From NCBI RefSeq assembly GCF_003019035.1, contig NZ_CP027447.1: a stretch of DNA of 64,000 nucleotides. The stretch is one strand, 5' to 3'. This DNA comes from Escherichia coli. Lineage in GTDB: Bacteria > Pseudomonadota > Gammaproteobacteria > Enterobacterales > Enterobacteriaceae. Positions 25,801-28,800 of the stretch are shown piece after piece (within the stretch, counting starts at the first letter, position 1; every line of letters starts with the position of its first letter). Position numbers: made by a program.

Positions 25801-28800
25801 ATTCACGTTGTGATGCCTGAAAATCATCACTGGACTGCGTGGCCTGCTTCAGACGGGCATTGACTGAATTCCACTCATCGGCGAGAGAAATAAGATGACC
25901 GGTAGCAAAAGCCCCGGCAAATGCCTCCGCCATATTCAGTGCCGAAGACTTAGCTGTATTTATCTGATCCGTCACTTCTACCAGTGCACGCCGCATTTCA
26001 CGGGATGCTGCAGCGGACTGTCGGCCTCCGTTCTGCATGGTGCGGTAGTAATCCTGCCCCATGCGCGAAGCCCGGGCGATCTCTGACTGGAATGACCGGG
26101 AGTTTGCCGAGATTTTAATAATCAGTTCACGTAATGTCGCCACACTCATTCTCCGGACGAAAAAAAACCGCCGAAGCGGTTTTTGTATTCTTTAAAGAAG
26201 TCCGGCCTTACGCCTTGCTTCCTGAAGATATTCATCATCCGTTTTTTGTGAAACGGAACTATCTGCATTGCAAATTAAATCACTACCGCAATGCTTACAT
26301 TTAATCACCTCTTCTTTGTTCGGGTCTGCACAGGGATTCTTCATGTCATTGTTTACCATTTGTTATTCATATGGCTTCTCATTTCCAGGATTACAAGTGA
26401 ATGGATCAGAGCAACAATAAAGATCATCGAGCCATATATCCACCACCTTAAAAATGAGCAACCTTTGCTTTTCGTGATAATCGCCGGAATCAGCCCTAAA
26501 ATTATTGAAATAAGTACGAATTCCATCGATGCCTCCTTACTTACTCAATAAAACGGGAATAATAATTCAGTTATGTGGAAAATTCATCGGGATGCAACAA
26601 ATAACGCCCTCTCAATCTCAGCAAGTGGATCGCCCATATTATTTTCACAGGCGCATTCCCACTGAAGAAGTGCATCATTCAGTGGAACTTTAACCCCCTG
26701 CGCACCGTAAACAGCTGAAACAATCTGGGCAGCACGGATATCAGCCCGTTCGTCCCCCAGCGGGCTGAACCTGTCAAATTCTGCCCACATCATGATTTCT
26801 GATGCGGACATTTCCCGGCGTAATTCTGACAATGTACGCCCCATCCTGAGTGCCAGCATCATCAGAAAACGCATCCCCGGAAGCGCTACTTTTTTTTAAC
26901 CTCGCCGGCATCACTGATCAGTTCCAGAGACTGCCGAAGAAGCCGCGCATGCACCGGGCCATACACGGCAATCACCTGTTCACGATCATCCTCTGAAAAT
27001 ACAGGTTGCAGTCCGGTATCACACAGAACATCAATGAACAGTTCAACATCTGCCTCCAGATTTCGGCGGGCGCGCTCCGCAACGGATAACGGTGTCTCAT
27101 CATCTTTTGCTTTAACGATCTCCTGCCAGCGCAACCAGGCTTCTGCAGAAGGTTCCCGTAATACAACCGTTGCTCCTTCCCATTCAGGCACATCAACAGT
27201 TTTATGGCGAAACCCCGACATCGTTGCCAGTGCCAGATTACGGATATTTTTAGTCATCACACCCATCCTCATTAACTGACGGTTACAGTGCAGGAAGTGG
27301 AGGTCACTTTGTTAACCGGGCTTGCTGAATCAGAAATCTCGCAGGTATATGCGCCCGCATCACCGGATACTGCCAATGCCTTACTGAACGTTGCCGCCGT
27401 CTGTCCGGAAACAGGAGAACTACCTTTCTTCCAGACATAAGAATAAGGCGGCACACCTCCGGCAGCCTCAACCACCATTTCGAGTTTCGCTCCGGCAGAA
27501 ACCTGCAGCGTGCTGTTTAAATCGACCTTCACTTTCAGCGGCTCTGTCGCCAGCACAGGTTTACCTTTCAGGCGCAGGGAAAACGTTGCAGCCACAACAC
27601 CATTGGTTCCTGCAGACCAGGTATGCTGACGCACCTCTGCCATAAAGGTAAATCCGTTTCCTGACGGAAAAATAACTTTAAAGCCATACGTGGTGTCATT
27701 GTCATAGGCACTGCGCAACGCGTTCTGGGCAGCATTGAGGTAAAAGTTGCCTGACATGGAAATCTCTGACGCGGCACCAAGACCGTTAATATTTTCCTGC
27801 TCAACAGAACACAGCGTGGTGACATCAATATCCTGCTTTTGTCCTGCGGTAAACTGCACCTCTTTGATTGTACAGCTCAGGCCAAGATAGCTGGCAGAAT
27901 CCAGGGTTTCTGCTGTTACCGGTGCAGACGAAATCATAATTTTCGTCAGTTGCGAACGCTCAAAATTAGAGGACATACTCGTCTCCTGAAAATAAAAAAA
28001 CCCGCCAGCGGCGGGTGGGTAAAATCATTAACGACCTCAGGCTATTACCTGAAATTCAAGCGTGGCTCTGCTCAGACGGGAATCAGGATCATAACCCTGA
28101 GTTTTAGAAATAACGGAGGGTACAAGTTGCCTTACCGCATCAAGCGCCTGTTCCCGGATATCATCTGCGTCATCAGGCACCGTTGCCCAGACATCGATCT
28201 GCACGGTAATTCTGGATTCAGCCTGACCATCAAGCACATCAGACGCCGTGTCAGACACCACAGAAAACACCAGCCACGGCGGAGATACCGCAGGCTTTCC
28301 CTCCGTCAGCGGGACCACATAAGGATAAACCTGTCCTCCGGCCAACTGAGACAGCAGGGAATACAGTGTGGCTTCCCTCATTTACTTAAGACCTCATCAA
28401 TAGCCTGATTCATTCGCTGTATGGCAACCTGCGCCGCCAGCTCCTCTGTCGTATCGAAAGCCGGGCGAATGAATGGATGCGCGGGCATGTTTATCGTTCC
28501 CAGCTCCACAAAGCGCCAGTAAAACGCATTTCGGGGATCGCTGGCTTTCATGCTGTTATCACTGTTTCCGGTTCGTAGGTTCCGTCCGCGAATGTGGACA
28601 CCCGAGATAATTTCCCCCCGACGCTTTGAACGCTGCGTGAGAACAACCACATTTTTCTTCAGTTTCCCGGTTCGCTCCGGCGCACGTTCAACAACTGCAT
28701 CCCGCATAACTTCAGCACCTGCACGGGTGGCATCGCGCAGAACCTTATTGTTTTCTGCCCTGCTGAGCGTCTCCAGATCCCGTGCAATATCCGCCAGGCC

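Follow-up and report, generated by a model that had tools for sequence, protein, structure and literature searches.

On the minus strand of the stretch of Escherichia coli DNA analyzed here (64 kb, hereafter "the window"), the major tail protein gene of a prophage is followed by the reading frames G and T, a small broken "moron" gene, and the gene of the tape measure protein. G, the slippery heptamer at its end, and T can all be read from this strand, and the interval 26584-27257 comprises exactly G plus T. The features that matter for the following are these, listed in the direction of transcription.

27272..27976, minus strand: major tail protein gene, which ends with TAA at 27274..27272 and is followed by G.
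27266..27270, minus strand: Shine-Dalgarno-like GAGGA, 8 nt 5' of the ATG of G at 27257 (read from the sequence).
26886..27257, minus strand: gene G, tail assembly chaperone; its 0-frame product has 123 aa by translation and ends with GEVKKK-TAG.
26896..26898, minus strand: TAA stop codon of the -1 frame directly 5' of the heptamer, which limits the possible shift window to 7 nt.
26889..26895, minus strand: slippery heptamer A AAA AAG, in the phase of G (X XXY YYZ) and within a run of eight A (A8) at 26890..26897.
26886..26888, minus strand: TAG stop codon of the 0 frame directly 3' of the heptamer.
26584..26889, minus strand: T segment, reached by the shift into the -1 frame and comprising 101 codons (VALPGMRFLMMLALRMG...FVASR) plus the stop codon TGA at 26586..26584.
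complement(join(26584..26889,26889..27257)), minus strand: GT fusion of 224 aa.
22916..26149, minus strand: tape measure gene, encoding 1077 aa.

An earlier reading of this DNA that used the sequence alone (the sequence-only reading) had proposed that G ends in GEVKKK and a stop codon over A AAA AAG at 26889-26895, and translation of the minus strand confirmed this: the 3' end of G reads GCC GGC GAG GTT AAA AAA AAG TAG, i.e., A G E V K K K stop. The start of G is most likely the ATG at 27257, which has the GAGGA motif upstream and is also the start given by RefSeq in identical prophages. In the -1 frame the codons at the site are GGT TAA AAA AAA GTA GCG CTT CCG GGG ATG CGT TTT, and this frame is open for 103 codons from the TAA at 26898..26896 to the TGA at 26586..26584. 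It thus runs straight into T, as had also been claimed, with no stop codon between the slippery site and T in this sequence, and it encodes a Phage_tail_T domain before reaching the TGA. The open stretches of the 0 and -1 frames overlap by exactly the 7 nt of the heptamer (overlap string TAAAAAAAAGTAG). Because the TAG of the 0 frame and the TAA of the -1 frame flank the heptamer on its two sides, the two frames can be joined by a -1 shift only at this site, and the predicted product of such a shift reads ...GEVKKKVALPGMRF... across the junction (GEVKKKVALPG...).

The protein families of the two halves are those of a tail assembly chaperone and its extension. G matches Pfam family PF06222 (Phage_TAC_1) over its full length (residues 1-123, E = 2.4e-58) as well as PHROG 344 ("tail assembly chaperone"), the G part matches PDB entry 2OB9 ("Tail assembly chaperone") with an E-value of 5e-49, and the T half of the fusion matches PF06223 (Phage_tail_T, E = 2.8e-18). 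Both halves also fall on one profile of 224 positions, PHROG 14766, of which G covers positions 1-121 and T covers positions 126-222. When compared to gp14 of phage HK97, the 224-aa fusion aligns over 224 of 224 residues with 63% identity and without gaps through the junction (E = 4e-107). Judged by their sequences, G and T belong to the HK97 gp13/gp14 family (Phage_TAC_1 plus Phage_tail_T), with both halves at full length. Membership in the sequence family of lambda G was rejected, because lambda G belongs to PF06894 (Phage_TAC_2) and G here matches only PF06222; a BLASTP comparison of the fusion with the lambda fusion likewise gave no significant alignment (best E = 0.89). The kinship to lambda is functional, with the T domain (PF06223) as the only Pfam family that the two systems have in common.

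The resemblance to HK97 (gp13/gp14; NC_002167, PDB 2OB9) extends beyond these families and the 224-aa length of the fusion to the position of the genes between those of the major tail protein and the tape measure protein, and to the presence of a small extra gene (the moron) and a terminator that follow T and precede the tape measure gene. In HK97, however, the heptamer is G GAA AAG and lies 5 codons before the stop codon of G, whereas A AAA AAG abuts the stop codon here and has a -1-frame stop codon directly upstream. The moron also differs, being gp15 in HK97 and a broken gene for a zinc-ribbon membrane protein here. With lambda G/G-T, our locus shares the class of mechanism, the gene order, an in-phase heptamer near the end of G, the PF06223 domain of T, and the principle of two products in a fixed ratio with one T domain per many G. 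Lambda differs in its heptamer (G GGA AAG), in the family of G (Phage_TAC_2), and in its longer T, which results in a fusion of 279 aa.

The region of G, T, and the moron is matched in 901 of 5426 complete E. coli genomes (853 with at least 95% identity), and JNEC-KY180 is 99.9% identical over a 1161-base query that covers all three genes. The core of the site, A8-G-TAG, does not vary among 83 close copies taken from viral contigs and genomes, though this invariance says little given an overall identity of about 97% among them. More divergent relatives (n = 11) were retrieved by tblastn against phage genomes; the relatives as a whole range from 28% to 100% identity and include phages of E. coli, Klebsiella, Serratia, Halomonas, and Burkholderia. 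A canonical in-phase heptamer occupies the corresponding position in most divergent homologues (9 of the 11 tallied). At this site we found in-phase A AAA AAG in Stx2a_WGPS8 (68% identity of G), Serratia OS31, Burkholderia phiE125, and Bcep176 (about 29%), the lambda heptamer G GGA AAG in HK542 and Salmonella SW-37, and A AAA AAC within a run of nine A (A9) in a Halomonas phage. HK97, HK446, and SaltyDalty have CGG GAA AAG (G GAA AAG). In one Klebsiella phage the heptamer is degenerate and reads A GCA AAG, followed by TAA.

In every relative with sufficient sequence, the -1 frame is open into the conserved T domain, and the fusions of the relatives align smoothly through the junction. The first part of this frame is also conserved, with a P-G/D/E-x-x-F-L/M-M motif that is kept in 11 homologues and lies 5' of the methionine called as the start of T by annotation pipelines. 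At the position of ATG 26874 of our sequence, by contrast, relatives have ATT, ATA, GTA, or ACC, and translation of the -1 frame of HK97 and HK446 revealed no ATG or GTG between its upstream stop codon and the conserved F-L-M. There is therefore no conserved independent start of T, and the downstream frame is conserved as protein up to the shift site. Conservation of this linker without a conserved start codon suggests that it can be translated only by ribosomes coming from G. Some existing phage records reflect this, e.g., those of HK446 and Bcep176 with joined G-T coding sequences and that of HK97, which calls gp14 "translated due to a -1 frameshift".

The number of heptamers is uninformative in itself, because AAAAAAG is over-represented across the window generally (40 copies in 64 kb compared to 16.7 expected from shuffles). 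A geometric scan for a long 0-frame ORF with a nearby stop codon and a long open -1 frame also matched at three other positions, which were explained as the junction of TerS and TerL (49684), that of a response regulator and a histidine kinase (8548), and an alternate reading frame within a capsid gene (39339), all ordinary gene overlaps or junctions. What raises the G/T site above chance is the 7-nt overlap that coincides with the heptamer, together with the family matches of both halves and the conservation in distant relatives. An open frame of 103 codons has a chance of about (61/64)^103 = 0.007. The +1 frame was rejected as an alternative since it is open for only 47 codons and contains no domain.

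Signals that might stimulate frameshifting were searched for on both sides of the heptamer. Downstream, we evaluated the folding of windows of 59, 89, and 141 nt after the site. The local folds are unremarkable (z of -0.3 and -0.9), and the fold obtained with 141 nt (z of -3.2) was rejected because its hairpins begin 2 nt and 22 nt past the heptamer, i.e., at the wrong spacing, and are not conserved. RNAalifold predicted 0 pairs downstream of the site across 10 homologues, and a scan of positions 26100-27400 against Rfam at permissive E-values found no frameshift element in the G-T region. Its sub-threshold matches to rsmX (24.7 bits vs. 56) and isrK (18.1 vs. 50) lie over the terminator behind the moron and not at the frameshift site. 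Upstream, no Shine-Dalgarno-like stimulator is conserved among the relatives examined: A GAGG motif is present here only 4 nt 5' of the heptamer, is absent from the closest divergent relative (L004, 82% identical), and recurs as GAGG or GAGGA in some relatives at variable spacing, which probably reflects acidic residues in the protein.

At the dnaX gene of E. coli (gamma/tau), a Shine-Dalgarno-like element lies upstream and a hairpin downstream, frameshifting reaches about 50%, and the shorter product is the one made by the shift. No conserved equivalent of this upstream element or this hairpin exists at G/T, where we found neither a conserved Shine-Dalgarno-like motif about 10 nt 5' nor a conserved stable hairpin 5-9 nt 3' of the heptamer. 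What the two sites share is the heptamer A AAA AAG itself (PMC3711429), which is decoded by the single tRNA-Lys of E. coli. The absence of stimulators at G/T suggests a modest efficiency that fits the few percent seen in lambda and in measured homologous cassettes. It does not argue against frameshifting, because these homologous cassettes are likewise without an evident Shine-Dalgarno-like motif or conserved downstream structure.

The measurements in question come from Antonov et al. 2013, who grouped 41 frameshifted genes with similarity to an HK97 protein in a "phage tail assembly chaperone" cluster and assayed two of its members (PMC3711429). In a GST-MBP reporter in E. coli, the Stx-type cassette (frameshift ID 15618692, AAA AAG TAG) showed 7% frameshifting, and 6% was obtained with the HK542-type G GGA AAG cassette (PMC3711429 Table S2). 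The sequence of the 7% cassette is identical to a Stx-phage homologue in our set (L087) and shares with the locus studied here a homologous G (68% identity), the AAA AAG TAG core, and the continuation V-A-x-P in the -1 frame. The two sites differ in the codons upstream (GCC AGA there, GAG GTT here) and downstream (CCC GCC there, CGC TTC here) as well as in the length of the A run (A6 vs. A8) and of the overlap with the -1 frame (22 nt vs. 7 nt). From this measured homologue, we infer that slippage occurs on the mRNA studied here as well and at what approximate rate.

A programmed -1 ribosomal frameshift of the G/GT type, in the version of the HK97 gp13/gp14 family, is very probably how T is expressed at this locus. 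The geometry of the sequence, the protein families of both halves, and the conservation of site and frame in relatives are direct observations that speak for it. The lambda-like -1 mechanism proposed by the sequence-only reading hence stands as the best-supported interpretation, with the refinement that the genes are of the HK97 gp13/gp14 family and not of the sequence family of lambda G. The majority of ribosomes would read G, decode AAA AAG, and halt at the TAG, which would give the 123-aa chaperone. A smaller fraction, probably a few percent, would move back by one base with two tRNA-Lys on A AAA AAG; this pair of tRNAs would re-pair on AAA AAA, and translation would continue with GTA GCG CTT... 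in the -1 frame to produce the 224-aa G-T fusion. The 0-frame stop codon right after the heptamer may assist this slippage.

By analogy to lambda, the G parts of both proteins would then coat the tape measure protein, and the T part would bring in the major tail protein so that the tube polymerizes to the correct length; both G and G-T would be absent from the finished virion. In lambda itself, gpG is made in an excess of about 30:1 over gpGT. The two proteins attach to the tape measure protein, the T domain contacts the major tail protein, and the virion contains neither gpG nor gpGT (PMC5009743). The underlying work on lambda G/GT is that of Levin, Hendrix and Casjens 1993 and of Xu, Hendrix and Duda 2004, 2013, 2014 (as cited in PMC5009743), and G/GT frameshifting is widely conserved in long-tailed dsDNA phages (review PMC5009743).

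The fusion could also arise during transcription if RNA polymerase added one A to the run in some transcripts (A8 to A9), which would yield the same GEVKKKVALPG... protein by standard translation. The heptamer is indeed embedded in eight consecutive A, nine (A9) are present in the Halomonas relative, and A homopolymers with n > 7 are among the known sites of programmed transcriptional realignment (PMC3711429). The product would be identical to that of the ribosomal route, irrespective of where in the A run the slip takes place, so that detection of the junction peptide by mass spectrometry cannot separate the two routes. Efficient transcriptional slippage in E. coli generally requires 9 or more A or T, however, and most relatives lack a long run altogether: Stx2a_WGPS8, phiE125, and Bcep176 have A6, while HK542 and Salmonella SW-37 have GGGAAAG. 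The conserved feature is thus the in-phase heptamer for tRNA slippage and not the length of a homopolymer. Since the A6 of the Stx-type cassette already yields 7% (PMC3711429), we regard slippage of the polymerase as quite improbable. It is unlikely that both routes contribute, i.e., ribosomal -1 slippage and insertion of an A, after an ancestral heptamer had grown to A8 between the -1-frame TAA and the 0-frame TAG in this E. coli lineage. If so, the ratio of GT to G might be raised or re-tuned relative to lambda or HK97, which could matter because this helper prophage carries an embedded capsid-encoding satellite.

Two further scenarios would do without any fusion. T might be made alone through initiation or termination-reinitiation at ATG 26874 (11 nt past the stop codon of G) or ATG 26862, in keeping with the presence of an ATG at 26874 in this allele, with the separate coding sequence called for T by PGAP and other pipelines (ATG 26862 being the RefSeq start), and with the occurrence of the 92-aa product on 295 contigs in public databases. 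Yet neither ATG is preceded by a good Shine-Dalgarno sequence, the one at 26874 is not conserved in relatives, and the conserved methionine from which pipelines begin T falls inside the T domain alignment. The linker P-G-x-x-F is moreover conserved in HK97 and HK446 even though these phages have no ATG or GTG start in the stretch, and lambda T, which lacks a start codon, depends entirely on the frameshift for its expression (PMC10111431, PMC5009743), which together make a free-standing T very improbable. As for recoding being absent altogether, with G and T as two pieces of one gene that was split by a frameshift mutation or as a chance configuration, the heptamer is indeed common (40 copies in the window) and also occurs together with an open -1 frame at ordinary gene junctions. 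The split arrangement is nevertheless the conserved one among all relatives examined, the most distant being 28% identical, and each of them has a slippery site of its own, just as it is invariant in the 83 close copies and matched in 901 of 5426 complete E. coli genomes. With a 103-codon open -1 frame that has a chance of about 0.007 and contains a Pfam domain on top of this, we consider this last scenario practically negligible.

The programmed ribosomal frameshift is not how T is usually annotated. RefSeq PGAP and most phage records present T as a free-standing protein of 92-96 aa that starts at an internal methionine. A protein identical to G (WP_000164661.1, annotated as "phage tail assembly chaperone") is found on at least 1000 contigs in a collection of 15 billion proteins, from which the exact 224-aa fusion is absent. 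The gain of our analysis lies in the annotation, for which the correct form is complement(join(26584..26889,26889..27257)) with ribosomal slippage. Both the mechanism and the family are already known and have been experimentally characterized in close homologues: G/GT frameshifting is a textbook case and the HK97-like "Phage_TAC" family has already been measured, so that little is added scientifically.

The sequence-only reading had also taken the frameshift site as support for an intact tail operon, which holds for the tail genes with their Pfam matches and not for everything around them. The tape measure protein, M, L, K (JAB plus NlpC/P60), I, Lom, and the fiber assembly protein have essentially full-length Pfam matches, and J (1131 aa) and the side tail fiber have several Pfam domains that span the protein. 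Tail completion and gp10-like genes are present upstream. The small gene that separates T from the tape measure gene, however, is frameshifted here by deletions of 1 nt and 6 nt. In relatives, this moron encodes a 113-aa zinc-ribbon membrane protein, is followed by a terminator, and occupies the position of HK97 gp15. Elsewhere in the prophage, the large terminase gene is split by the insertion of an embedded satellite of ca. 15 kb, which encodes a capsid and has no tail genes. The intact tail module thus lies in a prophage that is not intact overall.

Satellites of this family are described in the literature as taking only tails from their helper. The Stx1-type prophage studied here has a tail-assembly module that looks functional, and this is relevant because a tail-less satellite sits in the same prophage.

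The predicted -1 frameshift site at which the tail assembly chaperone gene G would be fused to its extension T (slippery heptamer A AAA AAG, 26895..26889) shares the window with a toxin-like gene:

54075-55031, minus strand: Shiga toxin 1 A-subunit-like ORF (translation MKIMIFRALTFFFVIFSVNAIAKEFTLDFSTAKKYV...)

The observation covers this ORF and its surroundings up to about 64000, and the annotation of a near-identical prophage in E. coli JNEC-KY180 lists stxA1d/stxB1d, a holin, a lysozyme, the Q antiterminator, and related genes. The ORF together with this annotation therefore places the G/GT site within an Stx1-type converting prophage.

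The large terminase gene (terL) of this prophage is interrupted by an inserted element, as mapping of the intact TerL of JNEC-KY180 to the window revealed:

33564-48644: co-oriented inserted element of ~15.08 kb
48635-49672, minus strand: one part of the split terL
32837-33577, minus strand: the other part of the split terL

Residues 1-346 of the intact 585-aa TerL from the JNEC-KY180 prophage map to one side of the element and residues 339-585 to the other, and both junctions carry the 7-bp core TCACGAA. The element encodes an integrase, a Bro-N protein, an AAA_25 replication protein, SSB, and ProQ/FinO alongside capsid and portal genes, HNH, TerS, and a full TerL of its own, and it lacks tail genes. 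It resembles a capsid-forming PICI that sits inside its own helper. Both capsid-forming PICIs (cf-PICIs; bioRxiv 10.1101/2022.09.08.507074) and helper-embedded PICIs, with A:Terminase_1:245 as a listed site (PMC10111431), have already been published. E. coli strain 361 shows the same split-terL arrangement, and there the terL halves are labeled as pseudogenes by PGAP. Clustered direct repeats with TTCCCCACT at a spacing of ~84 nt (41835-42050; repeat families D1, D3, and D12) sit directly upstream of the AAA_25 replication gene of this satellite and are plausibly iterons of its replication origin.

Closer to the frameshift site, the likeness of the 3' end of T (about 26584-26657, minus strand) to sequenced phages such as Evi ends ~24 codons before the T stop, and the C-terminus reads WECACENNMGDPLAEIERALFVASR in the window but WEQEQTEGASDPFAGLENALLIVSQ in those phages. 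Therefore, a mosaic junction lies inside T, adjoining a zinc-ribbon moron which is missing from these phages. This moron is broken in the window:

26192-26526, minus strand: two small ORFs, 57 aa and 55 aa long, in the gap that separates T from the tape measure gene
about 26163-26190: terminator (hairpin and T-run) after the broken moron

One of these ORFs matches the N-terminal half of PHROG family 8436 and the other the C-terminal half of that same family, and relatives have one 113-aa membrane and zinc-ribbon protein at the position of the two ORFs. Deletions of 1 nt and 6 nt have shifted the frame in the window, with loss of the first CxxC. HK97 carries the moron gp15 at the position held here by the broken gene. 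Rfam matches below the gathering threshold, to rsmX (24.7 bits; gathering 56) and isrK (18.1; gathering 50), fall at 26161-26263 (minus strand), across the last part of the broken moron and the terminator that follows it, and are most likely caused by the terminator hairpin.

The canonical X XXY YYZ heptamer is missing in some G-T homologues. Klebsiella phage ST13-OXA48phi12.4 (L088, 1190-1205) has GCT AAA GCA AAG TAA with a frame overlap of just 7 nt, and HK446 and HK97 (L085/L096) have CGG GAA AAG at the shift site. These sequences suggest that single-tRNA slippage on A AAG, or G-U re-pairing of the P-site tRNA, is enough in these phages.
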